Below, in pieces: positions 28,195 through 46,765 of a stretch of 64,000 nucleotides of DNA. The stretch's first letter is position 1, and every line of letters begins with the position of its first letter. The position numbers and the translations under genes are program-made. This stretch comes from Planctomycetota bacterium (GTDB lineage Bacteria; Planctomycetota; PUPC01; DSUN01). The notes under the pieces were generated by a model. It saw only the letters and a list, made by a program, of their open reading frames with translations. It was not told the origin of the DNA and did not search any database. Location of the stretch: positions 8,579 through 72,578 of the forward strand of contig DAOOIT010000002.1 of assembly GCA_035384565.1 (NCBI GenBank). The letters are read 5' to 3'.

Positions 28195-28373
28195 AGGGCC
28201 TCCGGCATGGGTCTGCGGACCTACAGTGGGCTGTGGTGTCACAGAGGGCAGCCCCTAGGGGCTGGGGGCGCCAGAGGGCCTCCCCTAGGAACCGGGAACT
28301 CTGGGAGAGTCTGGGAGACTTAGACCATGTTGTGGTGATGGTCTGCTGGCCTCCCAATGGGTGGGGGAGTGGG

Positions 28374-29225: not shown

Positions 29226-30732
29226 GGGACTGTGCGGCTCCGGGGGCTGGATCGGGCGTGGCGGGGTCCGGGGCGTGAACGGGGCGCGACGGGGCGGGCA
29301 GGGAGGCCGGGTTGTGCTCGTCGAGGAGACGGGTGAAGTAGGCGAGCGTCTGGCCGGCGATTTCGAGCGAGCCGTTGACGGGGGCCTCGACCTGGGCATC
29401 GAGGCTCGCGCCGCTGCGGCGGTGGCGCACGGGGATGGTGGCCTTGAGGGTGGGGTGGCCCTGGGGGTTCGCCTGGCTCCAGGTGAGGGTGCGTTGCGTG
29501 CCGTCGCGGTTGTCGAGGGTGAGGGTGAGAGCGGCGAGCTGCATTTGGGCGGCGGCCGCGCAGAGGGCCTGCCACCATTCATCGAACGTGGTCGCTCGGC
29601 GGAGGCCCAGCTCGGCGCTCTCGAACTCGCGCCGGCCCTGTTGGATGGCGCGGGAGATGGCCAGCTTGCGCTGGATGCCCGCCATCGTGTCGCTCAGGGA
29701 CACGGAGCCCGCGATCCCGAAGACCAGGAGCAGGAGCACGAGGACGCCGGCGAGAACGAGAAGCTGCCCGGCGTCGCGCGTGAGCATCATGAACAGGCCC
29801 ATTCCTGCGGCAAGGATGGTGACGAGGTAGAGGATCAGGACGACGTGGCGGTGCTGGACGCCCATGTCGATCAGGCGGTGATGGATGTGGCCGCGGTCGG
29901 GCGCGAAGATCGAGCGGCGCTCGAGGAAGCGTCGGAGCATGCTGAACAGCGTGTCGAAGATGGGCACGCCCAGGGCGAGGGCGGGGAGCGCGAGACCCAC
30001 TATGGTGGATGCCTTGGTGGCGCAGAAGACGCTCGCGGTGGCCAGGACGAAGCCGAGGAAATAGGTGCCGCAGTCGCCCATGAAGACCTTGGCGGGGTTG
30101 AAGTTGTGGTAGAGGAAGCCCAGAAGGCTGCCCAGGAGAGCCGCCATGAGCACGGCCATGACCGCCTGGTTGGTGTGGATGGCGAAGATGCCGATGACCG
30201 CGCAGGCCGCCGCGCAGATGCCGGCGCACAGGCCGTCCAGGCCGTCAATCAGGTTCACGGCGTTGGTGATCCCGACGATCCAGAGGACTGTGAGGGGCCA
30301 CGAGAGCCAGCCGAGGTCGAGCGAGAGGACCCCCTTGACGACGATGGCCTCGATGCGGATGCCGAAGGCGCACACGCCGCAGGCGGCGGCCACCTGTATC
30401 AGGAGCTTGTAGCGGGCGCGAAGGCCGCGAACATCGTCCACCAGGCCCGCGACGGCGACCAGTCCGGCGAAGGCCAGAATCACAAGGAGGCCCTTCTGGG
30501 CGGCGCGCAGCGCGGTCCCGATGATGTTCGTCAGCGTCATCCCGAGGAGCACGGCAGCCGCCGTGGCCACGATGATGGCGACCCCGCCGACGCGGGGAAT
30601 GGCCCCGGAGTGGACCTTTCGGGGGTCCGGCCTGTCCACCAGGCGGATTCGGCGCGCAATCCATGCCACCAGGGGGGTGATGGCTAGCGAGAGCCCCGCC
30701 GCGGCGGCTACGGTGGCCACATAGGTCTTCAT
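29212..30732 (-). CDS. Polyprenyl-phosphate HexNAc-1-phosphate transferase, WecA/WbpL/TagO (MraY-family GT4 PNPT) with C-terminal extension
   Basis: ...ITNAVNLIDGLDGLCAG...FMGDCGTYFLGF...HIHHRLI... are the PNPT motifs; 11 TM helices plus a roughly 150-aa soluble C-terminal tail. Confidence 0.85.
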   Translation of the reverse strand: MKTYVATVAAAAGLSLAITPLVAWIARRIRLVDRPDPRKVHSGAIPRVGGVAIIVATAAAVLLGMTLTNIIGTALRAAQKGLLVILAFAGLVAVAGLVDDVRGLRARYKLLIQVAAACGVCAFGIRIEAIVVKGVLSLDLGWLSWPLTVLWIVGITNAVNLIDGLDGLCAGICAAACAVIGIFAIHTNQAVMAVLMAALLGSLLGFLYHNFNPAKVFMGDCGTYFLGFVLATASVFCATKASTIVGLALPALALGVPIFDTLFSMLRRFLERRSIFAPDRGHIHHRLIDMGVQHRHVVLILYLVTILAAGMGLFMMLTRDAGQLLVLAGVLVLLLLVFGIAGSVSLSDTMAGIQRKLAISRAIQQGRREFESAELGLRRATTFDEWWQALCAAAAQMQLAALTLTLDNRDGTQRTLTWSQANPQGHPTLKATIPVRHRRSGASLDAQVEAPVNGSLEIAGQTLAYFTRLLDEHNPASLPAPSRPVHAPDPATPDPAPGAAQSHGRR

Positions 30733-31241: not shown

Positions 31242-32265
31242 CTCGACGCCGGGCGGCAGACTCGGCGGGTTCTCGGCAGCTTTCAGCACCAGCCAGTCCC
31301 CTTTGGGCCACACTCCGTCCCTGTCGGTGCACCGGCGGAGCCGGAAACCGAGGATACGTGTCCGCCGGTGCCAGTTCCTTCGGCGCCCCGGGCCCGCGGG
31401 GGGAGCCGGGCCAGAACGCCCGCGTGTTGCGCGCCGTGAGGGGGCACCCTCTCTTTGGACGGCAATGCCGCCCCTGGCCGGCCGCACAACCAAGCCGGCG
31501 GGCGACACGCCATGCCCGCCCCGCCGCCGGCCATGGCAGGCCCTTCTGCGGCGGGAGCCGGGGTGGACTGCAACTGCCGTATAGCCCGCATACACTATAG
31601 TGCATGGCGCCGAGCTTGTCAACGGAGCGCGGCCCGGCGTGGGGGAGAAGGCAGAGGGGGCGCGGAGCGCTGTGCTCAGCCCCTCCCTGCGCGTCGGGCC
31701 ACCTGGAGGTGCTTCTGCGAGGCGCCGGCGCGCCTGGTACTGAGGCGGTCGCGATGTGAGCTTCCGCCTTCGCCAGGGGCGCAGACTGCGCCCGGACCCG
31801 ACCCGCGAGCCGCCCCTCCCGAACGTTCCAATACGTTTCCCTCGTCCCTACGCTTTGCTCCTTCCTCTCGTCCCTACGCTCTGCGTGGGGACGCGCCTCT
31901 TGGCCGCTCCGCGGCCTCTTCGCTTCCGCGCGCGTCGGAGTGGGAACCTCCCGCGGGTTGCGAACCCGCGGGAGGTTGTCGGACGCGGGAGCGTCCGGAC
32001 CTCCGCCCCCACGCGGAGCATAGGGGCGAGAGAGAGGAATAGTTCCGGCCGCTGCAAACTGATTCACGGCCGGAGTAGTGGGGATCGCACCAGAGCGGAT
32101 GCCGCATTCCAGAAAGGCCATGAATTGCCAGACGCCGGCGGCAGGTTGGGGGACAGTTCTCGGAAGCCGCGCGCAAGTGATCCGCGTTCCACACCCTCAG
32201 ACATCGCAGCCGCCTTCCTGCCACTCAGCGATCGGCTTTGACAAACCGCTCCAAAGCTGCTACCG
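31242..32265. promoter_or_regulatory. Roughly 1 kb divergent leader/intergenic region upstream of the NusG paralog and the ABC binding-protein gene, holding direct and inverted repeats
   Basis: No convincing ORF (only Arg-rich shadow ORFs); contains direct repeats tcgtccctacgct (31842-31854 and 31868-31880), a 33-bp palindrome at 31935-31967 and the palindrome ggacgcgggagcgtcc at 31971-31986. Confidence 0.4.
31935..31967. repeat. Palindromic element aacctcccgcgggtt-gcg-aacccgcgggaggtt (copy 1; copy 2 at 57766-57799)
   Basis: 15-bp perfect inverted-repeat arms; a near-identical palindrome recurs inside a CDS at 57766-57799. Confidence 0.6.
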
Positions 32266-33636
32266 GTGGGGGCGCTCTGGGTCCCTTGCGCCTTGCAGGA
32301 GGCCGCATTGGCTCGCCACGGTGAACGCCTGCTGGCCGCCCTGTTGCTGGCCGCGGCCGGCTGCGAGAAGGCACAGACTGGCTCGGACGGCCCGGCGACG
32401 CTCGAGTTCGCCATCTTCGAGGGCGGCTACGGCCTCGGCTGGCACGAGCGGACCAGCCGCGCCTACGAGGCGCTCGCGCCCGGCGTGCGCGTGAGCCTGT
32501 GGGGCTCGCCACGCGTGAGCGAGAAGCTGCGGCCGCGCATTCTCCGGGGCAATCCGCCCGAGCTCGCGCTGTGCGACCTGCCGATCTGGCTGCTGATGCA
32601 GGGCGGCAAGCTCCGCCCGCTCGACCTCTCGCGCCCCGCGTACGGCCAGCCCGGCAAGACGTGGGGCGACACCTTCCTGCCCGGCGTGCTCGACCTCACC
32701 ACCTATCAGGGCCACTGCCTCGCCATTCCCACGGAGTTCGGCGGGTGGGTGATCTGGTACGACCGGAAGCTCTGGCGCGACCGCGGCTGGCAGGTGCCGC
32801 GCACGTGGGCCGACTTCGAGCGCGTGTGCCAGGAGATCAAGAAGGCGGGCCTCGCGCCCTTCGCCTTCCAGGGCAAATACCCCAGCTACGCCATCGGCAC
32901 CTTCTTCGGCCTGGTGCAGCGCGCGGGCGGCCTCGAGGCCTTCGCCGCCACGCAGAACCTCGAGCCCGGGGCCTGGCTGGCGCCCCCCGTAGCCGAGGCC
33001 GCCCGGCTTATGCAGCATATCGCCCTCGACTACTTCGACCCCAATTGCATGGCCCTCAGCCACATCGAGAGCCAGATGGAGTTTGTGAACCGCCGCTGCG
33101 CCATGGTCGCCTGCGGCCTGTGGCTCAAGCACGAGATGGAGCAGAACACGCCGCCCGACTTCGAGTTGAGCTGCTTCGACCTGCCCCCGCTGCGCCCCGA
33201 CGTGCCCTACATGTGGCAGGGCGGCGGCAGCCACATCTGCATGGTGTTCCGCGACGCGCCCCACGCGGAGCAGGCCGAGGATTTCCTCCGCTTCCTCACC
33301 TCGCGCCAGAACATGGCCCGGTGGATCGAGCACTCGGGCAGCCTGGCGCCCGTGCGGGGCGCGGCCGACGACGTGGCGCTGCCGCCCGACCTCAAGGCCG
33401 CCAAGGAGCTGATGGACAAGGCGGCCTACTCGTTCCAGTCGCGGCTGAGCTTCTTCTACCCGGGGCTGGGCCAGACGATGGTGGACCAGATCCGCTTCCT
33501 CATCACCGGCCAGTGCCGCCCCGAGGCATTCTGCCAGGCGATGGAGGCGGCCTGCCAGACGGTGCGCGGGAACCCGCGAATCCCCAAGGCGCCGCCGATG
33601 GAGGTGCCCGCGAAGTTCCGGAGGGCGTCGCCATGA
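32266..33636 (+). CDS. Sugar ABC transporter substrate-binding lipoprotein (family 1 solute-binding protein)
   Basis: Lipoprotein signal ...RLLAALLLAAAGC (possible TTG start about 32308); the size (about 450 aa) and its position directly upstream of MalF/MalG-like permeases support a sugar-binding protein. Confidence 0.8.
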   Translation: MGALWVPCALQEAALARHGERLLAALLLAAAGCEKAQTGSDGPATLEFAIFEGGYGLGWHERTSRAYEALAPGVRVSLWGSPRVSEKLRPRILRGNPPELALCDLPIWLLMQGGKLRPLDLSRPAYGQPGKTWGDTFLPGVLDLTTYQGHCLAIPTEFGGWVIWYDRKLWRDRGWQVPRTWADFERVCQEIKKAGLAPFAFQGKYPSYAIGTFFGLVQRAGGLEAFAATQNLEPGAWLAPPVAEAARLMQHIALDYFDPNCMALSHIESQMEFVNRRCAMVACGLWLKHEMEQNTPPDFELSCFDLPPLRPDVPYMWQGGGSHICMVFRDAPHAEQAEDFLRFLTSRQNMARWIEHSGSLAPVRGAADDVALPPDLKAAKELMDKAAYSFQSRLSFFYPGLGQTMVDQIRFLITGQCRPEAFCQAMEAACQTVRGNPRIPKAPPMEVPAKFRRASP

Positions 33637-34502
33637 GGCCCTCGCGCTGGATGATCGCCCTCTTCCTGCTCCCCGCGGTGGCCCTCTACACGGTGTTCGT
33701 CCTCATCCCCGCCCTCAGCGCCTTCGGCTACAGCTTCACCGACTTCACCGGCGTCACCAGGCCGCGGTGGGTCGGCCTCGAGAACTTCGCCGAGCTGGCG
33801 GGCACGGGCAGCGATTTCACGGCGGCGCTCCTCAACAACCTCTTCATCATCCTCGTGCCGGGCACGGCCACGCTGCTCGTGGCCCTGGCCTTCGCCTTCT
33901 TCATTGACCAGCAACTGCACGGCAGCCGCCTCTTCCGGGTGGTGTTCTTCTTCCCGAACATCCTGCCGCTGGCGGCCACCGCGGCGTTGTGGATCCTCGT
34001 GTTCTCCGCCACCGACATCGGGGCGGTCAACCGCGTGCTGCGGGCGATGGGCTTCGCGCCCGTGCAGTTCATGAGCTCGGCCAACCTGCTCCGCTCCCTC
34101 GTGCCAATCCTGGTGTGGGGCGGCGCCGGCTTCTACATGATCCTCTTCCTCGCCGCGATGAGCAGCATCCCCTCGACCCTCTACGAGGCGGCGCGGATGG
34201 ACGGCGCGGGCCTCTGGCACCAGTTCCGCCACGTCACCCTCCCGCTCCTGCGCGACACCATCGCCATGTGCCTGATCTTCGCCATCATCGGCGGGCTGAA
34301 GTTCTTCGACCTCATCTGGATCTTCGAGAAGCAGTACCCGACCCAGGACTCGCACGTCGTGGCCACGCTCATCTACTCGATGGCCTTCAACCAGTACCGC
34401 AGCGGCTACGGCGCCGCGATGTCCATCGTGCAGTTCGTCCTGATCCTGGCGGTGACGCTGGTGAGCCTGAAGCTCTTCCGCAAGGAACGGCTGGAATACT
34501 GA
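33633..34502 (+). CDS. Sugar ABC transporter permease (MalF/UgpA-like)
   Basis: Start MRPSRWMIALFLLP (ATGA overlap with the binding-protein gene); conserved EAA loop ...LYEAARMDGAGLWHQFRHVTLPLL... Confidence 0.85.
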   Translation: MRPSRWMIALFLLPAVALYTVFVLIPALSAFGYSFTDFTGVTRPRWVGLENFAELAGTGSDFTAALLNNLFIILVPGTATLLVALAFAFFIDQQLHGSRLFRVVFFFPNILPLAATAALWILVFSATDIGAVNRVLRAMGFAPVQFMSSANLLRSLVPILVWGGAGFYMILFLAAMSSIPSTLYEAARMDGAGLWHQFRHVTLPLLRDTIAMCLIFAIIGGLKFFDLIWIFEKQYPTQDSHVVATLIYSMAFNQYRSGYGAAMSIVQFVLILAVTLVSLKLFRKERLEY

Positions 34503-34514
34503 GGCGGCAAGCGG

Positions 34515-35537
34515 ATGACGCGCTGGACGCTCGTGGGAACTCTCGTGCTCGGCCTGCTCGCGCTGGTCGCGGGCCTGGCCTGGCTCCTGCACCGGCGGCG
34601 GGGCCACACGCGGGGCGAGGCGCTGGTGCGGTCGGCGGGCTACGTGCTGCTCTGGACGCAGTTCCTCCTCGTCGTGACGCCGTTCCTGTGGGTGATCCTC
34701 ACGTCGCTCAAGCCGAGCCGCGAGATTCTCGAATCGCCGTTCGCCCTGCCCCGCGTGCTCCGCGAGCCCACGGCCGCGCACTGGCGGCAGACGGCCGACA
34801 ACTACGCCACGGCCTGGACGAAGTCCCACTTCCGCGACTACTTTGCCAACAGCGTGAAGATCGCGGCCTGCGCGGTGGTGCTCACGGTGGGCCTCGCGGC
34901 GATGGCGGCCTATGTGCTCGCGCGATTCGAGTTCCCCGGCCGCAAGGTCCTCTATCTGCTCTTTCTAGCCGGGATGATGTTTCCGGCTCAGCTCATCCTC
35001 GTGCCGCTCTTCTTCCAGTTCTCGTGGATGTCCGACCAGCTCTCCGCCGTCACGCTCGCCGTCAGCAGGGCGTTGGGCGTCGGGCCGTACCGGGTCCAGA
35101 TGCACAACAGCCACGTGACTCTGGTCCTGCTCTACACGGCGGTGAGCTTGCCCTTCAGCGTGTTCGTGCTCACGAACTTCATGCGCACGATCCCGTCGGA
35201 GCTCCGCGAGGCGGCGCTGATAGACGGCGCCACCGAGTGGCAGGCCTTCTGGCGGGTGATGCTGCCGATGGCGAGGCCCGGCCTCACGAGCGTGGCGATC
35301 TTCAACTTCCTCGGCGTCTGGAACGAGTACCTCTACGCCCTGGTGTTCCTCGACGACGAGGCGATGCGCACCCTGCCGCTGGGCCTCGCCAGCGTCTCGA
35401 TTCTCGCCGACTACAAGAGCGACTACGGCCTGATGTTCGCCGGCCTCGTCATCACCGTGCTGCCGATCCTCGCGGCCTACCTGCTCTTGCAGCGCCACCT
35501 GACTCGCGGCGTGACCCTCGGCGCGCTGAAGGGGTAG
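34515..35537 (+). CDS. Sugar ABC transporter permease (MalG/UgpE-like)
   Basis: EAA loop ELREAALIDGATEWQAFWRVMLPMARPGL; 340 aa. No ATPase gene follows. Confidence 0.85.
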   Translation: MTRWTLVGTLVLGLLALVAGLAWLLHRRRGHTRGEALVRSAGYVLLWTQFLLVVTPFLWVILTSLKPSREILESPFALPRVLREPTAAHWRQTADNYATAWTKSHFRDYFANSVKIAACAVVLTVGLAAMAAYVLARFEFPGRKVLYLLFLAGMMFPAQLILVPLFFQFSWMSDQLSAVTLAVSRALGVGPYRVQMHNSHVTLVLLYTAVSLPFSVFVLTNFMRTIPSELREAALIDGATEWQAFWRVMLPMARPGLTSVAIFNFLGVWNEYLYALVFLDDEAMRTLPLGLASVSILADYKSDYGLMFAGLVITVLPILAAYLLLQRHLTRGVTLGALKG

Positions 35538-35688
35538 CTCGCGGGGGGGGCGTTTGAGCCGTCGCTCAGGGCAGGCTCTTGGCCGCGGGCGGGGCGTCCG
35601 CGTTCCGGGCTGCGGGGGCTCGAGATCCAGGCGAAGAACAGCACAACGCCCCGGGCCGTCCTGATGCGGCCCGCAGGAGGCATTCACA

Positions 35689-36399
35689 ATGGGTGTGGCA
35701 GGAACCAGAACGATATGGGGAGGATGGGCAGCCGCGGGCCTCGCGGCCGGGGCCTGCCTGTTCTGCTGCGCCAGCGCGGCGGGCGAGCCCGCGCCGGGCA
35801 AAGTGGCGCTGGTCCTCGAGCTGCCCCGGCCGCGATTCATCGGCACGCCGATCAACCTCAAGACCCCCAACCTCGAGAAGCCCCGCCAGGGGAAGCGTCC
35901 GGACCTCCTGGTCCCTGCGGGCCTCACCAATGTGGCGCTCAACAAGCCGGTCACGGCCAGCGACACCTCGCCCATCATGGGCGAACTGAGCCAGGTTACG
36001 GACGGCGATAAGGATGGCATCGAGGGGAGCTATGTGGAGATCGGCCCGGGCAAGCAGTGGTTCCAGGTGGACCTCAAGGAGCGTTACCAGGTCTTCGCCG
36101 TTGTCGTATGGCATTACCACGCCCAGGCGCGGGTCTACCACGACGTGGTCGTCCAGGTCTCCGACGATCCGAAGTTCGCACGTGACGTCCGCACCCTCTA
36201 CAACAACGACCACGATAACTCACTCGGCCTCGGCGTCGGCAGGGACAAGGAGTACATAGACACCCACGAGGGGCTCCTCCTTGACGCGGGCGGCGTCGAG
36301 GCCCGCTACGTCCGCCTCTGGGGCAACGGGAACACGGAGAACGGCCTGAATCACTGCACCGAGATCGAGGTGTACGGCAGGAGGCCTGCCGCGCCGTAG
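35689..36399 (+). CDS. Secreted F5/8 type C (discoidin) domain protein
   Basis: Signal peptide; LNKPVTASDTS...GSYVEIGPGKQWFQVDL...YVRLWGNGNTENGLNHCTEIEVYG is a typical discoidin/F5-8C carbohydrate-binding fold. Confidence 0.7.
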   Translation: MGVAGTRTIWGGWAAAGLAAGACLFCCASAAGEPAPGKVALVLELPRPRFIGTPINLKTPNLEKPRQGKRPDLLVPAGLTNVALNKPVTASDTSPIMGELSQVTDGDKDGIEGSYVEIGPGKQWFQVDLKERYQVFAVVVWHYHAQARVYHDVVVQVSDDPKFARDVRTLYNNDHDNSLGLGVGRDKEYIDTHEGLLLDAGGVEARYVRLWGNGNTENGLNHCTEIEVYGRRPAAP

Positions 36400-36485
36400 T
36401 CGAGCGAGGAGCACACGGGCCATGCCGCGTCGGGCTCGACGTGCGTCTGTGCGTGACGCGGCTCTGAGCGGCGCGGGGCTGGGGG

Positions 36486-37541
36486 TTGCAGGCCCTTGGG
36501 CGAAAGGAGAAGGCCGTGAGAGCGCTCGGGAATCTCTGGGGTCTCGTGGTCGCGGCAGTGGCGCTCGGCGGCGAAGCCGTGAAGGAGCCCCCGCCCACCT
36601 GGCCCTGGCCGGGGCCTACCCCGCCAGAGCAGCGGGAGGCCATGATGAAGAGGACCTTCCTCATCCAGCCCGCGCCGCAGGACATGAAGACCATCGAGGA
36701 GCTTGCGCCGGACAAGCCTCCCGCGGCGCCACAGAAGCCCCGCAAGCTCCTCCTCTGGGGCCGGGTCTGGACCCACATGGCCAACCCCATGACCGAGGAA
36801 ACGGTGAAGACCCTGGGCCGGAAGACAGGCGCCTTCGAGGTCGTGGTCACCGACGACCCGCAGATGCTCCTGCCGGAGAAGCTCAAGGGCTTCGATGCCA
36901 TCTTCCTCAACGGCCTGCACGACCCCACCCCCTTCCTGCCGCACTGGCTGAAGAGCATGCCCAAGGAGGAGCAGGAGGCCGCGATTGCCTTGGACCAGAA
37001 GGTCAAGGCCAGCATCCTCAAGTTCGTCGGCGAGGACGGCAAGGGCATCGCCGGCATCGAGGGCTCCATCTGCGCCCTGCGGGACTGGAAGGAGTTCGGC
37101 GAGCTGATGGGCGCCTTCTACGCCGGCCACTACGTAGGCAACTTTGTTCTCAAGGTGGACGACCCGGCCCACCCGCTGACGGCCTGCCTTGCGGGGCAGG
37201 CGTTCAAGGTGTTTGATCAGGGCTATGTCCCCGGCCCACCTTACTCGCCGAAGAAGGTGCGCGTCCTCTTGAGCCTCGACCTCACTCAGACGCCTGACCC
37301 TGTCGCCGATCCAAAGGCGGCCTGGCTGAAGCCAAGCGTGGAGAAGCTGGAGCAATCCACCGGACGCAGGGAGTACCCCATCAGTTGGGTCAAGTCGTAC
37401 GGCAAGGGGCGGGTCTTCTACCTTTCGCTGGGCGTACAGAAGGCCCCCTACTCCAACCCGCTCTTCATGCGCTACCTGCTGGGCGGCATCCAGTTCGCCC
37501 TGGGTGACCTGCCAGGCGACACCACACCGAGCGAGAAGTGA
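36486..37541 (+). CDS. ThuA-like (trehalose-utilisation protein A family; class I glutamine amidotransferase-like fold) secreted protein
   Basis: ...RKLLLWGRVWTHMANPMTEETVKTL...FDAIFLNGLHDPTPF...YPISWVKSYGKGRVFYLSLG...PLFMRYLLGGIQFALGDL; signal-peptide-like N-terminus (GTG start about 36516 possible). Confidence 0.65.
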   Translation: MQALGRKEKAVRALGNLWGLVVAAVALGGEAVKEPPPTWPWPGPTPPEQREAMMKRTFLIQPAPQDMKTIEELAPDKPPAAPQKPRKLLLWGRVWTHMANPMTEETVKTLGRKTGAFEVVVTDDPQMLLPEKLKGFDAIFLNGLHDPTPFLPHWLKSMPKEEQEAAIALDQKVKASILKFVGEDGKGIAGIEGSICALRDWKEFGELMGAFYAGHYVGNFVLKVDDPAHPLTACLAGQAFKVFDQGYVPGPPYSPKKVRVLLSLDLTQTPDPVADPKAAWLKPSVEKLEQSTGRREYPISWVKSYGKGRVFYLSLGVQKAPYSNPLFMRYLLGGIQFALGDLPGDTTPSEK

Positions 37542-37555
37542 AGGAGGACACGAGG

Positions 37556-38920
37556 ATGGGAGGCCAAGTCTCGCGTCGCGAGTTCGTGCGCCGGGCCGCT
37601 CTCGGCGCCGGCGCGCTGCTGCTGGCCAACAGCCGCTCCGCGCGGACCTATGCGGCCAATGGCAAGCTGAACATCGCCCTCATCGGCGTGGGCGGGCGCG
37701 GCAAGTGGTACGTGGACGTGGTTCCCAAGATGGAGAACGTGGTGGCGCTGTGCGACGTGAACGAGAGCAAGGCCGAGGCGGCCTGCAAGCTCTTTCCCGA
37801 TCTGCCGAAGTTCCACGACTTCCGCGTCATGCTGGACAAGATGGGCAAGGAGATGGATGCCGTCTTCGTCGCCACGCCTGACTTCACGCACGCCGCCGCC
37901 GCCGTGGCCGCGATGCAAGCCGGCAAACACGTCCTGTGCGAGAAGCCGCTGACGCGGACAGTGTATGAAGCTCGCGTGATGCGCGACATAGCCCAGAAGC
38001 ATAAGGTCGCCAGCCAGATGGGGAACCAGGGCTCCGCCAGCAACTCCTTCCGCCGCGGCGTCGAGCTGGTGGAGGAGGGCGCCCTTGGCGAGGTGACGGA
38101 GTGGTACGGCTTCAATGCCGATGGCGGCCCCAACATCAAGGAGCCGCCCAAGGAGGCCGCGCCATGCCCCGAGTACCTGAAGTGGGACCTTTGGCTCGGG
38201 CCGGCCCAGTACCGCGAGTTCCATCCGCGGTGGCTCGGCTGGACCGTCTGGCGCGACTTCAGCAACTACCAGCTCGGCAACTGGGGCTCCCACGTCTGCT
38301 TCCTCGGCTGGAACGCCCTCAAGCTCGGCTCGGTGTGGGCGATGCCGCCGGAGAGCAGACCACGCATTCGCGTCCAGGCCGAAGTCTCCGAGATCAACAA
38401 GCTCTCCTTCCCGCGCTGGCAGGTTATCCGCTGGAAGGTGCCCGCCCGCGAGGGCTTCCCGCCCCTCACCTTCACCTGGGTCAATGGCCAGGGCGGCGCT
38501 GCACAACAGGCCTGGGACAAGATCGTGGACTACCGCGGGAAGAAGTTCAAAGCCTGGGCCTGTGGCGGGCTCATCGTCGGCACCAAGGGCAGAATGGAGA
38601 ACAACGCCGGCGAATGCTGGTTCGTGCCGGTCCCGGGAGAGCAGGAGAAGGGCGAGGTCATCTCCGGCCCCAAGAAGTTGCCCCCTTCGCGCGGCCACGA
38701 GGGCGACTTCTTCCAGGCCTGCCGCGGCGGCATCCCGGCCTGGGGCAACTTCGGCAACACCGGCCCCTACTGGGAGTTCATGGCCCTCGGCAGCATCGCT
38801 ACCCAGTTCCCCGATGAGCTGGAGTACGACCCGCTGGAGTGCAAGATTGTGAACAACGCCGAGGCGGACGCGCTCTTGAACCCGCCCCGCCGGGAAGGCT
38901 GGGAGTTGCCCACCCGTTGA
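37556..38920 (+). CDS. Gfo/Idh/MocA-family oxidoreductase with twin-arginine signal (ThuB/glycoside 3-dehydrogenase-like), paralog 1
   Basis: SRREFVRRAALGAGALLLA (twin-arginine motif), LNIALIGVGGRGKWYV (Rossmann), ...EKPLTRTVYEARVM...; 455 aa. Confidence 0.8.
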   Translation: MGGQVSRREFVRRAALGAGALLLANSRSARTYAANGKLNIALIGVGGRGKWYVDVVPKMENVVALCDVNESKAEAACKLFPDLPKFHDFRVMLDKMGKEMDAVFVATPDFTHAAAAVAAMQAGKHVLCEKPLTRTVYEARVMRDIAQKHKVASQMGNQGSASNSFRRGVELVEEGALGEVTEWYGFNADGGPNIKEPPKEAAPCPEYLKWDLWLGPAQYREFHPRWLGWTVWRDFSNYQLGNWGSHVCFLGWNALKLGSVWAMPPESRPRIRVQAEVSEINKLSFPRWQVIRWKVPAREGFPPLTFTWVNGQGGAAQQAWDKIVDYRGKKFKAWACGGLIVGTKGRMENNAGECWFVPVPGEQEKGEVISGPKKLPPSRGHEGDFFQACRGGIPAWGNFGNTGPYWEFMALGSIATQFPDELEYDPLECKIVNNAEADALLNPPRREGWELPTR

Positions 38921-38970
38921 ACTGCCACGGGGGAGTTGGCGACCGCAACACCGAGAAGAGGAGATGAACT

Positions 38971-40353
38971 ATGGTGGCGCAGACTCGACGCGGTTTCCTC
39001 CGCCGCGCGGCCCTGGGTGGAGCGGGACTGGTCGACCTTGCCGGCAGCCGCTCTGCACGCACCTATGCGGCCAATGGCAAGCTGAACATCGCCCTCATCG
39101 GCTGCGGCGGGCGTGGGAAGTGGTTTGTGGACGTGATGCCGAAGATGGAGAACGTGGTGGCGCTGTGCGACGTGAACGAGAGCAAGGCCGAGGCCGCCTA
39201 CAAGCTCTTCCCCGATCTGCCGAAGTTCCACGACTTCCGCAAGATGCTCGACGAGATGAGCAAGCAGATTGACGCGGTGATCGTGTCCACGCCCGACCAC
39301 ACCCACGCCGTCGCCTGCGTGGCCGCGATGAAAGCGGGCAAGCACGCCTTCGTTGAGAAGCCGATGGCCGCCTGCCCCTACGAGGCCCGCACGATGCGCC
39401 TGACGGCCGAGAAGATGAAGGTCTCCTCCCAGATGGGCAACCAGGGCTCCGCCAGCGGGGCCTTTCGCCGCGGGGTCGAACTCGTCCAGGAAGGCGCGCT
39501 CGGCGAGGTCAAGGAGGCATTCGTCTGGAACTCCGGCGGCGGCCCCGACACCAAGGAAGCGCCCAAGGAAGAACTGCCGGTGCCGCCCTACCTGAAGTGG
39601 GACATCTGGCTCGGTCCGGCTCAAGACCGTCCCTTCCACCCCAAGTGGCTTGCCTGGAGCGGGTGGCGGGACTTCGGCACCGGGCAGCTCGGCATGTGGG
39701 GCTCGCACAGCGGCTACCTCGCCTTCTTCGCCCTCCAGGTGGTGGACCTCTGGCATGCCGACCCCGCCACCAAGCCCCGCATCAAAGTGCAGGCCGAGTT
39801 CTCGGGCATCAACAGGCTCTCCTATCCCAAGTGGGAGCTGGTGCATTTCGCCATTCCCGCGCGCGGCGGCATGCCACCGGCAACGATCCACTGGGTCAAC
39901 GGCGGCGGACTGGACTCGCCCTCCCGCAAGAAGATCGAGGGGCTTGTGGGCAGGCAGTTGGACTGGGGCGACGCGGGCGAGAAGAAATGGAAGGAGTTCG
40001 CCGGCTCTCTCCTTGTCGGCTCCAAGGGAATGATCCTCGGCGGCGGCCACAGCGCCACGACCGAGCTTCTGCCCGCCGACCAGTTCAAGGATGCGCAGAA
40101 GGACGCCCCGAAGAAGCTCCTCGGCTCGCAGGGGCCGGAGCGCGACTGGGTGCGGGCCGCCAAGGGCGAGAGCGTAACGCCCATGTCCAGCTTCAGCCTT
40201 GCCGGCCCCTACATGGAGATGATGCTCCTCGCCAACGTCGCCACCCTATGCGAAGGGGAGCTTGAGTACGACCCCTTGGAGGGCAAGATCACCAACAACG
40301 CGGAGGCCGATGCCCTCTTGCGCCGCCCCTACCGCGACGGCTGGTCGCTGTGA
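38971..40353 (+). CDS. Gfo/Idh/MocA-family oxidoreductase with twin-arginine signal, paralog 2
   Basis: TRRGFLRRAALGGAGL (twin-arginine motif); about 70% identical to paralog 1 over the N-terminal 150 aa (LNIALIGCGGRGKWFVDVMPKMENVVALCDVNESKAEAA.KLFPDLPKFHDFR). Confidence 0.8.
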   Translation: MVAQTRRGFLRRAALGGAGLVDLAGSRSARTYAANGKLNIALIGCGGRGKWFVDVMPKMENVVALCDVNESKAEAAYKLFPDLPKFHDFRKMLDEMSKQIDAVIVSTPDHTHAVACVAAMKAGKHAFVEKPMAACPYEARTMRLTAEKMKVSSQMGNQGSASGAFRRGVELVQEGALGEVKEAFVWNSGGGPDTKEAPKEELPVPPYLKWDIWLGPAQDRPFHPKWLAWSGWRDFGTGQLGMWGSHSGYLAFFALQVVDLWHADPATKPRIKVQAEFSGINRLSYPKWELVHFAIPARGGMPPATIHWVNGGGLDSPSRKKIEGLVGRQLDWGDAGEKKWKEFAGSLLVGSKGMILGGGHSATTELLPADQFKDAQKDAPKKLLGSQGPERDWVRAAKGESVTPMSSFSLAGPYMEMMLLANVATLCEGELEYDPLEGKITNNAEADALLRRPYRDGWSL

Positions 40354-40378
40354 GCGCGGGGCAGCGCCTGCCCCGCGC
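40354..40378 (+). terminator. GC-rich hairpin immediately after the stop codon (candidate intrinsic terminator, no U-tract)
   Basis: gcgcggggcag-cgc-ctgccccgcgc is a perfect 11-bp stem starting 1 nt after the TGA at 40351-40353. Confidence 0.4.
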
Positions 40379-40591
40379 GGTCCTGAACCTGCGGAGTTCA
40401 TTCCCCCAGCGGCAGCCAGGGCACGTCGAGGTATCTCTCCAGCGATTGCGCGGGTTCGTCGAGCACCCATGCCCAGGCCTGCGTGGCGCCCACGGCCACC
40501 TGGGGGATGACTGACAGCCCCACACACGAGAGAAGGACGCGGGAGCGTCCCGGACCGCGCGTCCCCACACGGGAGCGCGGGGACGATTGCG

Positions 40592-40834
40592 CTACTTGGA
40601 ATGGATGAGAAGTCTTGAGAAGGCGTTCATTTCGGAGCCGAGGCCGAAGAAGCAGGCGCTCTGGTCGGTATTGCGGTTGGCGTCTACGAACTTGATCTTT
40701 CGGGCGATGGCGCGAATGAACTTGGCGAGCGCGACGCGCGAACGGGCGTATTGCGCGAAGGTTTCGTCGCGGAGCGAGATCGTGAAGTTGCGCGTCCAGC
40801 CCTTCCCGTCCAGGCGCTTCTCCAGCGCGGGCAT
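40592..40834 (-). pseudogene. Small ORF or gene fragment in a locally lower-GC stretch; the protein-like frame extends upstream without a start codon
   Basis: 80-aa ORF MPALEKRLDGKGWTRNFTISLRDETFAQYARSRVALAKFIRAIARKIKFVDANRNTDQSACFFGLGSEMNAFSRLLIHSK. The same frame stays open upstream (...QGNLALRSPAIQHWDPTGREKAGRLDSTDVDAPGYGRFLKAL-M...) to about 40995 with no ATG/GTG, and it is the +1 frame relative to the upstream 733-aa gene. Confidence 0.25.
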
Positions 40835-41081
40835 GAGGGCTTTCAGGAAGCGGCCGTAGCCTGGGGCGTCAACATCCGTGGAGTCGAGCCTGCCCGCTTT
40901 CTCGCGGCCAGTGGGGTCCCAGTGCTGGATGGCGGGCGAGCGGAGCGCGAGGTTGCCCTGGGCATCCAGGGCGTGCTCAGACGCGCAATCCCGCTGCCTG
41001 TGATGCTCCCGCCAGCCAGCACAGGACTCCCGCCCACAGAATGCGAGAAGTTCGGCCTGCCATCTGAGGTCACTCCTCCCT

Positions 41082-43283
41082 TCAGTGCCGCTGGGAAAGG
41101 GGCGCCCATCGGCTCTGGCCGGCAGCGACGAGGATGGCTCGAAGGTTCTGAAGGTAGAAGGGGTCCTGCGTCACCTCCGGCCACGGCAGGTTCTCGAGGA
41201 GCCACTCGGGCGTGCCGTCGAGGACGAATGCCTTGACCTGATAGTAGGGCGTGATCCCACCCCAGTTGTTCATCTGGTCCTGCGAGAACTGGTTGAAGGT
41301 CTCAGGCCAGAGCCAGGTGAAGAAGTCCCAAACGACGGCGACCTCGCCCTTCATGTGATCGCGCCAGAAGCGGTGCATCTCGTCGCGGGCGAGGGGGAAG
41401 ATGCCTGTCCAGGGGGCCAGGAAGAGCGTCGGGTCGCCCTCGGGGCCGGGCCCGTGGGTCGTTATCCACCAGTTCACCTTCGTGTCATAGATGATGTCGG
41501 TCTTGCGGGCGAGGTGGTCGGGCAGGACGCCGGTGAGGTGTCGGAAGCGGTTGGCGCCCGACGTGTGGTCGCGGCCCATGTAGCTGGCGATGTAGTCGGT
41601 GCCGAAGAAGTGGGCATACCAACCGACGAGGTGCTTGGCGACGAGGTAGGCGGCCTTGCCATACGCGGCTTCGTCGCCCAGGGCCTTCATCAGGCGGGCG
41701 TAGGCGATGAGGGCGTTCACCTGCGCAGTGTGGCAGAAGCCGGTCGTCGCCCAGCCTTCCACGGCAAAGCCGAGGAGCCAGTTGTGGCGGGTGAGCACGT
41801 GGTTAGCCATTGCATCCAGGAACGCCCGATTGGGCTTTACGGCGTCAAGGTCGCCCGTGTAGTGGGCGTAGGCCCAGACAGCGGAGAGCGCGATGCCGTT
41901 GTAGAGGTCCTCGGATTCCCAGACGCCGCTGATGCTGCGCTCGGACTTCGGGCGGAGGACGGCCACCTGTCCCGACGGTGTGCGGACGGTTTCCTTGAGG
42001 AAGTTGGCTTCGGCGAGGACCTCGCCCAGCATCGCCTTGGCACGTGCCTTGGCCTCTTGCCGGAGCTCGGGCTTGAGCAACGGCAGCGATTGGCAAAGGG
42101 AGAAGAGCTGCTCGTTCCTGGCCCCGAAGCGGAAGAACTGGTAGTTGGAGGAGCTTGAGAGCCAGCGGAAGGGCTTGTCGCTCTTGAGGATCTTCTCCAC
42201 CTGGGCGTTCAGCTTCGCAAGGGCCTCTTTGCTTATCGGGTCGTCGCCTGGCGTGATCTCAAGCACTTCGTCAACGTATCTGCGGCCGCCGGGGAAGCGG
42301 AGGGTGTGGCTGTCGCCTTCGCAGGCCAGGAGCGGGCCGTTGACCGTCGGATACGACAGGTCGGTTGGAGCGGGCGCGACTTCTATGGGCAGCGGCCCTT
42401 TGCCTGCGAAGGCCAGGGCAATGCCGAGCGCGGGGGGCAGAGGGGCGAGCTTCTCCCCCTTCGTGCCCCAGTCGTCTTTGATCTCTTCGCAGTCAAAGCC
42501 CTGGCGGACGCTCACCGAGCCATCGGCTCCCAGGCGGTATTCCTCCTTGCACGCAACGGGGAAGAAGCGGCTCATTCGGACGAGGCGTCGGCATCGCTCC
42601 CTCACCTCGGCCGGCAGTTCCTCCTTCCATGCGCCTGTCTCGGAGCCCCTGAGCTTCCTGGCCCCGAAGAGCGGCATCACCTGCATGACGCCGGCCGGCT
42701 TCTCGCCGAAGTCCAGCACCACCGCGCCATGGTGCCCGACGCCCTTGAGCCTCGTTTGCAGGGTGATGAGCATCGGGGCGTCCACCCCGACGACCGCCGG
42801 CGTGCCGTGGACGGCGGGAATCTGGCCGTCGCTGAACCCCTTCGCTTTGTGGAAGGAGACCAGTGCGAACGGCTCGGAGAGGGGTGCCCTGGTCTGCGTA
42901 GGGGCAGCGCCGGCGAAAAGGGCTATCTTGCGTGCATCGGTCCGAATGAGTACCGCTGGCGAAAGGTTGCTCACCCATAGCTCGAGCGCGCCGGCCGCGC
43001 TCTCGAAGCGGCACCTGGCCGCGCACCAGTCGGCGGAGACCAGTGTGGCCTTCACTGGGCCGTCGCCGGGCAGTCGGACCTCGCCAAAGCCGAGCTCGGT
43101 TCCCCGCAGGGCGAGCTCGGGCCAGGCGTTGGGCTTCAGCTTCACCGTGAGGGCCATGCCAAGCACCTCGCGGCCGGGCTGCCAGAAGGTGCCCATCGCC
43201 GCCTGGTCAACGCCGCGCGACCACTCGGCGCCGGCCGCGAGCGCGGTCAAGACTGAACAGATGGAGAAGACGATTGGCCTCAT
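41082..43283 (-). CDS. Large secreted hypothetical protein (733 aa) of unknown function
   Basis: Signal peptide MRPIVFSICSVLTALAAGAEW; start assigned by the ATGA overlap with the upstream PQQ gene (43280-43283); the 1018-aa track ORF N-extension is Arg-rich junk. No recognisable catalytic motif. Confidence 0.6.
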   Translation of the reverse strand: MRPIVFSICSVLTALAAGAEWSRGVDQAAMGTFWQPGREVLGMALTVKLKPNAWPELALRGTELGFGEVRLPGDGPVKATLVSADWCAARCRFESAAGALELWVSNLSPAVLIRTDARKIALFAGAAPTQTRAPLSEPFALVSFHKAKGFSDGQIPAVHGTPAVVGVDAPMLITLQTRLKGVGHHGAVVLDFGEKPAGVMQVMPLFGARKLRGSETGAWKEELPAEVRERCRRLVRMSRFFPVACKEEYRLGADGSVSVRQGFDCEEIKDDWGTKGEKLAPLPPALGIALAFAGKGPLPIEVAPAPTDLSYPTVNGPLLACEGDSHTLRFPGGRRYVDEVLEITPGDDPISKEALAKLNAQVEKILKSDKPFRWLSSSSNYQFFRFGARNEQLFSLCQSLPLLKPELRQEAKARAKAMLGEVLAEANFLKETVRTPSGQVAVLRPKSERSISGVWESEDLYNGIALSAVWAYAHYTGDLDAVKPNRAFLDAMANHVLTRHNWLLGFAVEGWATTGFCHTAQVNALIAYARLMKALGDEAAYGKAAYLVAKHLVGWYAHFFGTDYIASYMGRDHTSGANRFRHLTGVLPDHLARKTDIIYDTKVNWWITTHGPGPEGDPTLFLAPWTGIFPLARDEMHRFWRDHMKGEVAVVWDFFTWLWPETFNQFSQDQMNNWGGITPYYQVKAFVLDGTPEWLLENLPWPEVTQDPFYLQNLRAILVAAGQSRWAPLSQRH

Positions 43284-44635
43284 CGCTTGGCCTCCCTTGG
43301 CTTGAAGGCTCGCAGGTTGTCGCCGCCGTGGGACATTGCCGGGATGGCCCTGATGATGCCGTTGGCGAAGACCTTCCCCTCGGCGACGACGGGCGAGTAG
43401 ACGTGGAAGCCCTTGGCGCCGCCCGTGAGCTTGCCGGCGTCGGGGCATTCGCCCCAGGGCCAGGGATGGCGCCTGCTGAGCTCCAGAATCGTGCCGTCGC
43501 GGCGGCCGATGAACGACGTGCCGAAGATGAAGTCCTGCGTCAAGGCCACGTTGTTCTTGATCAGGTGCCCGCCCGTCCAGGCGCGGGTGAACTCCTCGTC
43601 CCAGAGGAGCTTCCCGGTCTTGAGGTCGAAGGCGAGGACGGGGGCGTTGTGTTCGTGATTGTAGATCGTGCAATGGGCGTAGACCACGCCATCGGCGATG
43701 GAGGGGGCGAGGCCCTGGAACTGGGCGATGGAGTAGAGCTTGCGGAACCAACTGCGGTTCCCGCCCCACTCCATCTCCTGCGGCGGCTTGGCCTCGCGGG
43801 GCCAGCTCCACAGTTCCTCGCCCGTCTTCGCATCCAGGGCGTAGAAAGTGATGCCCTTGCCCTGCTCGACGAGGGCCTTGGCGAGGTTCTCGTGGATGAA
43901 CCACTCGTAGCCGGTGCCGTCGTCCCAGACCCGCCCGAGTAGCGTGCCGATGCAGACCACGCCGTCGGCGACCGAGGGCGACGAATAGGCGATCTTCCCT
44001 TGAGTCTTGTGGCTCCATAGCTGCTTGCCGGTGGCCTTGTCGAAGGCGAAGAGCATGCCTTCGCGTGCCGCGGCGTAGACGATGCCGCCGGCGACGGCGG
44101 GGCTGGACCACACCTGGCTGCCGCAGTCGGCCTTCCACTTCTCCTCGCCAGTCTTAAGGTCCAAAGCATAGAGGTTGAAGTCGTTTGAGCCGATGAAGAC
44201 CACGCCGTCCACGATGGCGGGCGCCGACCATATCTTGTCGCCCGTCTCCTTGCGCCAGACGAGCTTGCCCGATTGCGCGTCAAGGGCGTAGACCGTCTTG
44301 TCGTCGCTGCCGAAAACGACGATGTTGGAGTTCACGGCGGCGGCGAAGCCGATCTTGCCTTTCGCATCAAAGTGCCAGAGCTCATCGCCTGTGTCGGCAT
44401 TCAGGCAGAAGAGGCGGCCGCCCCACGTGCCGATGTAGACCCTGCCGCCGGCCACGACGGGCTGCGCGGTTGAGCGGCCGATCTCCTTGTCCCACGCGAT
44501 CACCAGATCGGGGCTGATCGGCTCGTTGGAGAAGCTCGTGTGCGCGGGGTCGTGGGCGTAGCACGGCCATTCGTCCGCCAACGCGGCCCCGAGGCCGAAG
44601 GCGCCGGCGATCACGGCCAGAAGAGCGGTTCTCAC
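43280..44635 (-). CDS. Secreted PQQ-like beta-propeller repeat protein
   Basis: Signal peptide MRTALLAVIAGAFGLGAALA; repeated ...G.VY.G..DG.LYALDA.TG..LW... blades (VYIGTWGGRLFCLNADTGDELW, VFGSDDKTVYALDAQSGKLVW, VFIGSNDFNLYALDLKTGEEKW). Confidence 0.75.
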   Translation of the reverse strand: MRTALLAVIAGAFGLGAALADEWPCYAHDPAHTSFSNEPISPDLVIAWDKEIGRSTAQPVVAGGRVYIGTWGGRLFCLNADTGDELWHFDAKGKIGFAAAVNSNIVVFGSDDKTVYALDAQSGKLVWRKETGDKIWSAPAIVDGVVFIGSNDFNLYALDLKTGEEKWKADCGSQVWSSPAVAGGIVYAAAREGMLFAFDKATGKQLWSHKTQGKIAYSSPSVADGVVCIGTLLGRVWDDGTGYEWFIHENLAKALVEQGKGITFYALDAKTGEELWSWPREAKPPQEMEWGGNRSWFRKLYSIAQFQGLAPSIADGVVYAHCTIYNHEHNAPVLAFDLKTGKLLWDEEFTRAWTGGHLIKNNVALTQDFIFGTSFIGRRDGTILELSRRHPWPWGECPDAGKLTGGAKGFHVYSPVVAEGKVFANGIIRAIPAMSHGGDNLRAFKPREAKR

Positions 44636-46395: not shown

Positions 46396-46504
46396 CCAGG
46401 CGCTCCTTTCAACACGAGAGCTCTCCCACAGCCGCAGTCTAGGCTGCCTGGCATCCGGAATCAAGCAGCCATAGCCACCTTCCGCCACCGCTCAGGGTGC
46501 AAGC

Positions 46505-46765
46505 CGGGTGTGGGCCGGAATTGTAGGCGGCTGCGGGAGTTCCGAAGGAGCGAAATAGGATAGCCCAGGGCAACGCCCTGGGAACAAGACCGCCCCGCGG
46601 CAGCCCTGACAGGGCGGAATCGAGAGCTTCTATCTCGCCCCTTCAGGGCTGGACTCGTGGATCCCGCTGAACCCAGGGCGTTGCCCTGGGCTATCCCATG
46701 CGAGCCCTTCAGGCTCCAGAGACAATCACCCTGCCTGCAATTCCGGCCCGCACCCGTGCAAGCCG
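46505..46765. repeat. Nested inverted-repeat element in the divergent intergenic region
   Basis: Inner arms ggatagcccagggcaacgccctggg (about 46557-46581) and cccagggcgttgccctgggctatcc (about 46669-46693) are perfect reverse complements about 90 bp apart, and each arm is itself a hairpin (cccagggc-aac-gccctggg). Outer arms ggtgcaagccgggtgtgggccggaattg (about 46505-46532) and caattccggcccgcacccgtgcaagcc (about 46737-46763) give 18 of 19 matches in the core. Confidence 0.5.

Follow-up and report, generated by a model that had tools for sequence, protein, structure and literature searches.

A Planctomycetota locus with a putative extracytoplasmic dehydrogenase-ThuA module for non-hydrolytic glycan breakdown beside a sugar importer

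ThuA and ThuB, encoded in the thuEFGKAB gene cluster of Sinorhizobium meliloti and Agrobacterium tumefaciens, form 3-keto-disaccharides, and to our knowledge ThuA has been without a molecular function ever since the thu operon was described. A second system, BT2156-BT2160 of Bacteroides thetaiotaomicron and AL1-AL5 of Alistipes, cleaves glycosides oxidatively (Liu et al. 2021, PMC8121099; Nasseri et al. 2024, bioRxiv 10.1101/2024.03.25.586180). Its dehydrogenases AL3/BT2158 are exported by twin-arginine translocation (Tat), contain tightly bound nicotinamide adenine dinucleotide (NAD) and oxidise the 3-OH of a glycoside, whereupon separate lyases cleave by elimination (PMC8121099; bioRxiv 10.1101/2024.03.25.586180). 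This oxidation-elimination type of cleavage was established only in 2021-2024, in gut Bacteroidota (same references). Here, we analysed 64,000 nucleotides from an uncultured Planctomycetota bacterium (contig DAOOIT010000002.1, positions 8,579 to 72,578; the window in the following), in which seven genes encode components of an ATP-binding cassette (ABC) sugar importer of the CUT1 type, a discoidin protein, a ThuA-like protein and two dehydrogenases of the Gfo/Idh/MocA family, Gfo1 and Gfo2. An earlier note, based on the letters of this DNA, had read the set as a candidate 3-keto-glycoside system with ThuB-like enzymes that is coupled to the importer. From comparative sequence analysis we propose, with a rough probability of 0.55, that the region instead consists of two juxtaposed units, namely the CUT1 importer and an extracytoplasmic module that would start the non-hydrolytic breakdown of glycans. 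A literature search returned no paper on such a system in Planctomycetota.

Gfo1 and Gfo2 are 59% identical to each other. Both start with a twin-arginine motif (SRREFV in one and TRRGFL in the other). A mildly hydrophobic h-region comes next, and then the conserved c-region SRSAxxYAAN. Among the 43 genes of the window only these two possess the [ST]RRxF[LV] motif; it is kept in their homologues, and the h-regions are less hydrophobic than those of nearby Sec signals. Based on motif inspection, h-region hydrophobicity and conservation in homologues, both proteins are predicted Tat substrates, as the earlier note had already claimed. In NCBIfam, the two proteins match the glycoside 3-dehydrogenase model NF058561 (BT_2158_fam) at 1.9e-77 and 2.4e-82, covering model positions 1-436/437 of 487. 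The only strong matches in the PDB are 8tdf/8tdh, with 8tdf aligning to query residues 33-443 and 33-458 (5e-54 and 9e-59). The entries 8tdf and 8tdh are one protein by sequence, which is taken to be AL3 of Nasseri et al. from the neighbouring entry 8tdi ('P2B11 glucuronide-3-dehydrogenase'). The identity of Gfo1 and Gfo2 to AL3/BT2158 amounts to about 34-36%, and these full-length matches agree with the previously claimed kinship to periplasmic glycoside 3-dehydrogenases. When the residue roles described for AL3 (bioRxiv 10.1101/2024.03.25.586180) were mapped onto a MAFFT alignment, the GxGxxG motif, the lysine of the EKP motif, Gln161 and His252 (AL3 numbering) were found to be kept in Gfo1, Gfo2 and six other Gfo proteins encoded next to ThuA.

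The similarity to other members of the family is of a different kind. In the PDB search, DgpA, glucose-fructose oxidoreductase, inositol dehydrogenases and the GH109 glycosidases aligned to the Rossmann half only, at 1e-6 to 1e-11 (DgpA at about 1e-10, glucose-fructose oxidoreductase at 1e-7 to 2e-8, and GH109 entry 6t2b at residues 35-179 with an E value of 3.2e-7). Likewise, the NCBIfam model of the inositol dehydrogenase IolG covered only the N-terminal 150 residues (1e-19 and 2e-16). As these matches are partial and weak, membership of Gfo1 and Gfo2 in any of the four groups was rejected. The earlier note had considered a grouping with inositol dehydrogenases or glucose-fructose oxidoreductases as speaking against its reading, and the Rossmann-only matches show no such grouping. 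We also located thuK, thuA and thuB of S. meliloti on pSymB by tblastn; the encoded ThuA (270 aa) and ThuB (365 aa) both lack a signal peptide. Gfo2 shares 26% identity with ThuB over 149 Rossmann residues only (E 7e-8). Due to this restriction to the Rossmann domain, orthology of Gfo1 and Gfo2 to ThuB was rejected, and the label 'ThuB-like' does not hold. A third Gfo/Idh/MocA gene of the window (62506-63759) had been counted towards the same chemistry. Its product is a generic member of the family with IolG as best match (1e-21), and it was dismissed as an analogue of BT2159.

To place the genes in a wider context, species representatives of GTDB were scanned with the ThuA alignment. This yielded 80 related loci from metagenome-assembled genomes (MAGs) of Planctomycetota, Verrucomicrobiota, Victivallales, Hydrogenedentota, Sumerlaeota and Armatimonadota, in which Gfo and other neighbours were detected by hidden Markov models (HMMs) from our own alignments; loci with mis-called open reading frames (ORFs), such as L016, were left out. 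A Gfo-family ORF occurred no more than 3 kb from ThuA in 52 of the 80 loci, and 46 Gfo ORFs were located within 100 bp of it, nearly all on the same strand and equipped with RRxFL motifs. The density of Gfo genes was 1.72 per 10 kb near ThuA compared to 0.24 per 10 kb further off, a 7-fold difference. On the long contigs of L006-L008, the ThuA homologues each stand beside Tat-Gfo genes of 450-460 aa in otherwise unrelated contexts. In a phylogenetic tree, the close ThuA-adjacent Gfo partners formed a clade apart from AL3 that comprises several lineages of paralogues, and Gfo1 belongs to a different one than Gfo2; the more distant Tat-Gfo partners in related loci also match BT_2158_fam best.

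Clustering of the neighbouring genes revealed only one further recurrent family, the orthologue (about 250 aa) of the discoidin protein. The window protein matches F5/8 type C (9e-8) and a NedA-like domain (2.5e-9), both above the Pfam cut-offs. Its orthologues (51-79% identity) are present in 10 ThuA loci and directly precede Gfo/ThuA in L011, L014 and L017. In six further MAGs (L042, L046, L073, L079, L085 and L090; e.g. L085:3317-9124), a string of four genes for a 7-haem cytochrome c, the discoidin orthologue, a PMT/GT39-like membrane protein and an ApbE flavin transferase lies beside Tat-Gfo and ThuA, which hints at an extracytoplasmic link to electron transfer or glycosylation. Long ThuA proteins found elsewhere are either fusions of ThuA with HEAT and F5/8 type C domains or contain tandem ThuA domains. 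The conserved unit thus is discoidin protein, ThuA and one or more Tat-Gfo proteins, and the conserved adjacency together with the fusions makes the ThuA-like and discoidin proteins look like obligate partners of the dehydrogenases. Both this unit and the loss of a residue triad in the ThuA protein of the window had been missed by the earlier note.

For the ThuA-like protein, a GTG at 36516 (341 aa) and not the later ATG was taken as start codon; the resulting signal peptide and the following WPWPGPTPP motif are kept in 17 homologues (46-79% identity). The ThuA domain already recognised by the earlier note is clear (PF06283, 7.7e-30; 105 bits at a cut-off of 33.4), and the protein shares 22% identity over 163 residues with S. 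meliloti ThuA (E 0.012). An AlphaFold2 model (pLDDT 89) gave 4jqs, 4e5v and 1t0b as top Foldseek matches. All of these are uncharacterised ThuA-like proteins from structural genomics, so that the fold yields no function. A sequence-profile search of the protein against the PDB had no matches, tblastn against plasmids retrieved remote ThuA genes without useful context, and no mechanistic work on the role of ThuA was found in the literature search. Three positions of the alignment, situated in a strand-turn-helix elbow (G[IV]H[AGS]A), a DEIY motif and an LGH motif, are His/Glu/His in 79 of 105 aligned ThuA-like sequences and also in S. meliloti ThuA. The window protein has Glu182, Gln235 and Val307 instead. 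Glu/Gln(Asn)/Val occur together in all 24 members of the window subclade, which includes L006, L007 and L011-L017, and two of the 105 sequences are intermediates; L014 encodes both types of ThuA 4 kb apart. This correlated replacement suggests that the three residues may form one site, as does, by analogy, their correspondence to the triad positions of class-I amidotransferases. The window subclade would then have lost or changed this site, yet it is strongly conserved and linked to Tat-Gfo.

The importer is complete except for its ATPase. The binding protein matches SBP_bac_1 (2e-17), and its N-terminus, MARHGERLLAALLLAAAGC, contains a plausible lipobox (AAG↓C). It scores 248.6 bits with the NCBIfam model NgcE, below the cut-off of 399.65, and its best PDB match is 9h0n (1e-25), followed by NagB1/NagB2, which places it among relatives of proteins that bind GlcNAc or chito-oligosaccharides. 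Together, the family-1 binding protein and two BPD_transp_1 permeases correspond to the composition of a CUT1 importer. No ABC ATPase gene is present in the seven-gene unit, as had been stated before; the sole ABC ATPase of the window is Wzt of a divergent polysaccharide-export cluster. The ATPase must therefore come from elsewhere in the genome. CUT1 importers of this class are known to share an ATPase encoded elsewhere (MsiK type). Across the more than 80 related loci, binding-protein homologues adjoin ThuA/Gfo in none, i.e. only in the window, and permease homologues were found in one locus besides the window. The closest relatives, L011, L014 and L017, keep the order discoidin-Gfo-ThuA-Gfo and have no transporter. 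As the importer is never conserved beside the module, its coupling to the oxidising module, as claimed in the earlier note, rests on local adjacency.

The layout of the locus is summarised in Table 1. All seven genes of the 32.3-40.4 kb region are co-directional on the forward strand, with a G+C content at third codon positions of 0.86-0.95 in a window of about 67% G+C, and the same contig is present, in identical form, in several metagenomes. The previously reported gene set and its terminal hairpin are thus all in place, with slightly revised start codons. From the binding protein to Gfo2, the genes are spaced by -4, 12, 151, 116, 14 and 50 bp, the start of permease 1 overlapping the stop codon of the binding-protein gene (ATGA). 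Given the gaps of 151 and 116 bp, transcript breaks are possible after permease 2 and after the discoidin gene. The hairpin had been described as strong; its 11-bp G+C stem is free of mismatches and closes a 3-nt loop. It does exist, yet lacks a U-tract and has a fold energy that is unexceptional for its composition (z -1.35 compared to shuffles); on these grounds a canonical intrinsic terminator was rejected. Two copies, and no more, of the 16-nt hairpin motif GGACGCGGGAGCGTCC are present in the 64 kb; they share one orientation and lie on either side of the seven-gene block. The chance expectation of the motif is 0.24 even with two mismatches permitted, and the similarity of the two copies extends over about 45 nt. 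The motif could be a repetitive extragenic palindrome (REP)-like element, mark the limits of an inserted block or be a site at which the same protein binds.

Table 1 Features of the seven-gene block and its flanking elements (window positions)
Feature	Position	Strand	Basis or remark
Substrate-binding lipoprotein, CUT1-type	32308-33636	+	SBP_bac_1; alternative starts 32266, 32293
ABC permease 1, MalF/UgpA-like	33633-34502	+	BPD_transp_1 1.3e-12
ABC permease 2, MalG-like	34515-35537	+	BPD_transp_1 4.7e-21; MalG 1.9e-31
F5/8 type C (discoidin) protein, small, secreted, 236 aa	35689-36399	+	Pfam
ThuA-like protein, predicted Sec-exported, 341 aa, triad-less subclade	36516-37541	+	PF06283 7.7e-30
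Gfo1, predicted Tat-exported Gfo/Idh/MocA dehydrogenase, AL3/BT2158 family	37556-38920	+	NF058561, 8tdf
Gfo2, predicted Tat-exported Gfo/Idh/MocA dehydrogenase, AL3/BT2158 family	38971-40353	+	NF058561, 8tdf
G+C-rich hairpin, no U-tract	40354-40378	+	11-bp stem, 3-nt loop, abuts stop codon
16-nt hairpin motif GGACGCGGGAGCGTCC, upstream copy	31981-31996	+	possible REP-like or boundary element
16-nt hairpin motif GGACGCGGGAGCGTCC, second copy, 3' of cassette	40535-40550	+	sequence match

How far these findings carry the proposed combination of a sugar importer and a module for non-hydrolytic glycan breakdown has to be weighed against a number of observations that point the other way. The scores of Gfo1 and Gfo2 with NF058561, 260.9 and 277.1 bits, do not reach the equivalog cut-off of 750. 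The sugar-contacting residues Arg192, Trp195, Asp248 and Tyr349 of AL3 are replaced by D/G, G/G, N/M and G/H in Gfo1/Gfo2 in the MAFFT alignment. HMMER pairwise alignments differ slightly (e.g. a Trp at the Tyr349 position in Gfo1), and the four sugar-pocket residues are conserved in neither alignment. No gene for a TIM-barrel or DUF1080 lyase is present in the window or in an additional flank of roughly 10 kb on each side (about 84 kb in total). The window ThuA, having no His/Glu/His triad, may be non-catalytic. With respect to the importer, it is a lineage-specific neighbour outside the conserved module, and the 151- and 116-bp gaps would allow separate transcription.

Some of these points admit a more specific reading. 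Since the catalytic core is kept and the pocket is changed, the preferred sugar should differ from the glucoside of AL3, and with fold, export route and core in common Gfo1 and Gfo2 are best described as relatives of AL3, not as equivalogs. As to the lyase, neither a xylose-isomerase TIM barrel nor DUF1080 was detected among the Pfam-scanned genes of the window, and a custom TIM-barrel HMM did not detect a TIM-barrel gene either; a xylose-isomerase-like partner nearby, as the earlier note had suggested looking for, is absent from the window and the roughly 20 kb of flanks. In the related loci, the family met most often is AP_endonuc_2, to which the lyases AL1/BT2156 belong, with 10 of 85 small same-strand neighbours. 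By HMM, 12 of about 83 related loci contain a TIM-barrel gene; several of these genes encode Tat-type N-termini, and four directly adjoin ThuA. Their recurrence beside ThuA/Gfo elsewhere connects the ThuA/Gfo pair with the 3-keto-glycoside pathway at large; this locus itself is left without a recognised eliminase. Of the original 3-keto-glycoside reading, the homology to glycoside 3-dehydrogenases, the predicted Tat signals and the ThuA domain thus persist, in contrast to the likeness to ThuB, the coupling to the importer, the local lyase and the contribution of the third Gfo gene.

If the module acts as proposed, Gfo1 and Gfo2 would acquire both their fold and their nicotinamide cofactor in the cytoplasm and be exported in the folded state, as suggested by the Tat signal and by the examples of AL3/BT2158 and glucose-fructose oxidoreductase. 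In the periplasm they may, judging from homology, oxidise a ring hydroxyl, by analogy the C3-OH, of the non-reducing-end sugar of oligosaccharides that could be released by GH123, GH5, GH16 and other enzymes encoded in the neighbourhood. Oxidation would acidify H-2 and thereby prime the glycosidic bond for beta-elimination instead of hydrolysis. The bound cofactor may be recycled by reduction of the keto-sugar product, as deduced from AL3, and elimination and hydration would fall to an enzyme whose gene lies elsewhere or to a partner that has escaped recognition. The discoidin protein may bind the glycan, and ThuA may serve as an accessory or scaffold subunit or process the keto-sugar. Import of the products by the adjacent ABC system is conceivable. 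As a weak guess, the substrate might be a glycan that contains N-acetylhexosamine (HexNAc) or galactose, with respect to the NgcE/NagB-like binding protein, the GH123 genes, which occur in the window and in four other related loci, and the NedA-like galactose-binding domain.

The surrounding genes are glycan-degrading in character, and the region is a large glycan-utilisation neighbourhood. From the flanking proteins named in the earlier note, the GH5 and the PQQ_2 propellers were recovered, and CBM9 gave a sub-threshold match only. A gene-poor stretch follows the cassette on its 3' side and contains a short GH123-like remnant (40664-40918, reverse strand; Pfam GH123_cat 8e-7) that shares 29% identity with residues 351-433 of the intact GH123 (44638-46488) and probably represents a decayed paralogue. 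This GH123 gene is flanked by two gene pairs of like design (41082-44635, reverse strand, and 46865-50800, forward strand). In each pair, the gene for a secreted PQQ_2 beta-propeller precedes one for a large protein in which Pfam recognises no domain (733 aa in one pair and 845 aa in the other). A weak paralogy links the two large proteins, which share 27% identity over 218 aa. Elsewhere among the loci, too, PQQ_2 propellers are encoded close to ThuA/Gfo. Rfam predicted an Acido-Lenti-1 RNA at 46538-46582 (reverse strand; 38.7 bits at a gathering threshold of 37), on the same strand as the GH123 gene and some 50 nt upstream of its start, and a tRNA gene (51283-51365, forward strand; Rfam, 60.4 bits) lies just upstream of a large gene with DUF4838 and FGE-sulfatase domains. 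Beyond the ends of the window (L091 and L092) we found GH16, a second DUF4838 protein, a beta-helix protein, GH95 with an F5/8C domain and a bifunctional fucokinase/GDP-fucose pyrophosphorylase. On the other side of the cassette, and divergent from it, a 31-kb cluster for polysaccharide biosynthesis and export (1-31400, reverse strand) comprises many GT2/GT4 glycosyltransferases, several methyltransferases, Wzy, Wzm/Wzt, a WecA-like GT4 and a NusG-like regulator, with a near-consensus sigma-70-like promoter at 31622-31594 (reverse strand). Within this cluster, the 2-kb bin 28001-30000 has a GC skew of +0.27, compared to absolute values of 0.1 or less elsewhere, and coincides in position with the Wzm/WecA-like genes and with an ORF extension rich in Pro, Ser and Thr.

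Other explanations of the locus differ from the preferred one either in how the two units relate or in what the dehydrogenases do. The importer and the oxidising module may form one coupled operon in which oligosaccharides are oxidised or cleaved in the periplasm and the products imported by the adjacent transporter. We consider this a possible but doubtful arrangement: all seven genes run in one direction at close spacing, a canonical terminator is lacking before 40354, identical copies of GGACGCGGGAGCGTCC bracket exactly this block, and thuEFGKAB provides a precedent for joining a transporter with ThuAB, going by the title of Ampomah 2013 as cited in PMC8121099. What argues against it is the 151-bp gap after permease 2 and the evidence of the related loci, where the binding protein stands beside ThuA/Gfo in the window genome only, the permeases recur in one other of more than 80 loci and L011, L014 and L017 maintain the discoidin-Gfo-ThuA-Gfo order without a transporter. 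The altered sugar pocket and the scores below the equivalog cut-off would also agree with Gfo1 and Gfo2 being periplasmic dehydrogenases of free sugars, polyols or other alcohols that serve redox balancing or electron donation in the manner of glucose-fructose oxidoreductase. The missing lyase gene fits this as well, and in the six distant loci the position of the discoidin orthologue between the 7-haem cytochrome c and ApbE, beside Tat-Gfo and ThuA, hints at electron transfer. Still, such a function appears unlikely to us: homology to AL3 spans the whole C-terminal substrate domain, in contrast to the Rossmann half shared with glucose-fructose oxidoreductase and inositol dehydrogenase, and TIM-barrel genes of the lyase family turn up next to ThuA/Gfo in other loci. 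Glycans are also suggested by the discoidin partner and by the many glycoside hydrolases of the surroundings, and no cytochrome gene is annotated in the window.

A self-contained mechanism is another way to account for the lack of a lyase within 84 kb. Gfo1 and Gfo2 could be NAD-dependent glycosidases similar to GH109, in which a single active site carries out oxidation, elimination, addition of water and reduction, and the Tat signal, the presumably tightly bound NAD, a size of about 450 aa and the proximity of GH123 (a HexNAc-ase) and an NgcE-like binding protein would suit such enzymes. That 6t2b matches residues 35-179 only (3e-7), compared to a full-length match of 1e-58 for AL3, makes this quite improbable, and AL3 itself depends on separate lyases (bioRxiv 10.1101/2024.03.25.586180). 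Finally, the module might remodel the cell's own envelope or exopolysaccharide instead of using external glycans as food. The module adjoins, divergently, the 31-kb polysaccharide cluster, and in six loci the discoidin orthologue is found next to a PMT/GT39-like membrane glycosyltransferase. This adjacency to a biosynthesis cluster was not seen in the related loci, however, and both these loci and the downstream neighbourhood of the window are rich in glycoside hydrolases and sulfatases, so that envelope remodelling is the least probable of the options. We therefore favour an importer and a module for oxidative glycan breakdown that lie side by side.

In this locus and its roughly 80 relatives, exported ThuA proteins of environmental phyla that degrade glycans are strongly paired with dehydrogenases of the AL3 family. 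The relatives also feature a discoidin partner that recurs, and among them the probable active site of ThuA has changed as a whole. It is tempting to speculate that the exported ThuA-domain proteins are the missing functional partners of Tat-exported Gfo/Idh/MocA sugar dehydrogenases across Planctomycetota, Verrucomicrobiota and neighbouring phyla, and that they recycle enzyme-bound NAD(H) or process the keto-sugar. In this tentative scenario, the set present in the window, with its triad-less ThuA, discoidin protein and Gfo paralogues, might be a distinct periplasmic glycan oxidiser that operates without known lyases. If so, PF06283 would gain a molecular function. Work on the locus could assign a role to ThuA and extend this alternative pathway of glycan breakdown beyond the gut; it touches on the in vivo recycling of the bound cofactor of the periplasmic dehydrogenase and on the breadth of the pathway.

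Compared to known systems, the importer most closely resembles NgcEFG and other chito-oligosaccharide CUT1 importers that work with a shared MsiK-type ATPase. Both comprise a binding protein and two permeases without an ATPase of their own, and the window binding protein matches the NgcE model and the NagB1/NagB2 structures best, differing in that it stays below the NgcE equivalog cut-off (248.6 versus 399.65 bits). With thuEFGKAB, the window shares a ThuA-domain gene that adjoins a Gfo/Idh/MocA gene beside a CUT1 sugar ABC transporter. The canonical ThuA and ThuB have no signal peptides, however, whereas the proteins of the window are predicted to be exported; S. meliloti ThuA has the His/Glu/His triad, which the window ThuA does not, and the ATPase ThuK has no counterpart in the window unit. 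The NAD-dependent alpha-N-acetylgalactosaminidases of GH109 agree with what is proposed here in the Gfo/Idh/MocA fold, in export by Tat and in a chemistry that oxidises C3 transiently before elimination; similarity is N-terminal only (3e-7), the subfamily is another one and a self-contained glycosidase mechanism is unsupported for the window proteins. In the deglycosylation of C- and O-glycosides by DgpA and DgpBC, OGE or CarABC, a 3-dehydrogenase, in the case of DgpA a Gfo/Idh/MocA protein, similarly precedes a metal-dependent TIM-barrel eliminase. These systems are cytoplasmic, DgpA matches the window proteins in the Rossmann domain at about 1e-10, and the window has no TIM-barrel partner. 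The closest counterpart is BT2156-BT2160/AL1-AL5. In place of its TIM lyase AL1/BT2156, its DUF1080 lyase/hydratase AL2/BT2157, a BT2159-type cytoplasmic reductase and a SusR regulator, none of which the window has, we find two Tat paralogues with exported ThuA-like and discoidin proteins, and the sugar-pocket residues and the sub-cut-off NCBIfam scores set Gfo1 and Gfo2 apart. The likeness includes full-length homology at about 34-36% identity between predicted Tat-exported Gfo/Idh/MocA proteins, the kept EKP lysine, NAD-contacting Gln and catalytic His, and a periplasmic, glycan-degrading context. We therefore regard the locus as a probable variant of the oxidative (3-keto) glycoside pathway and not as a new principle.

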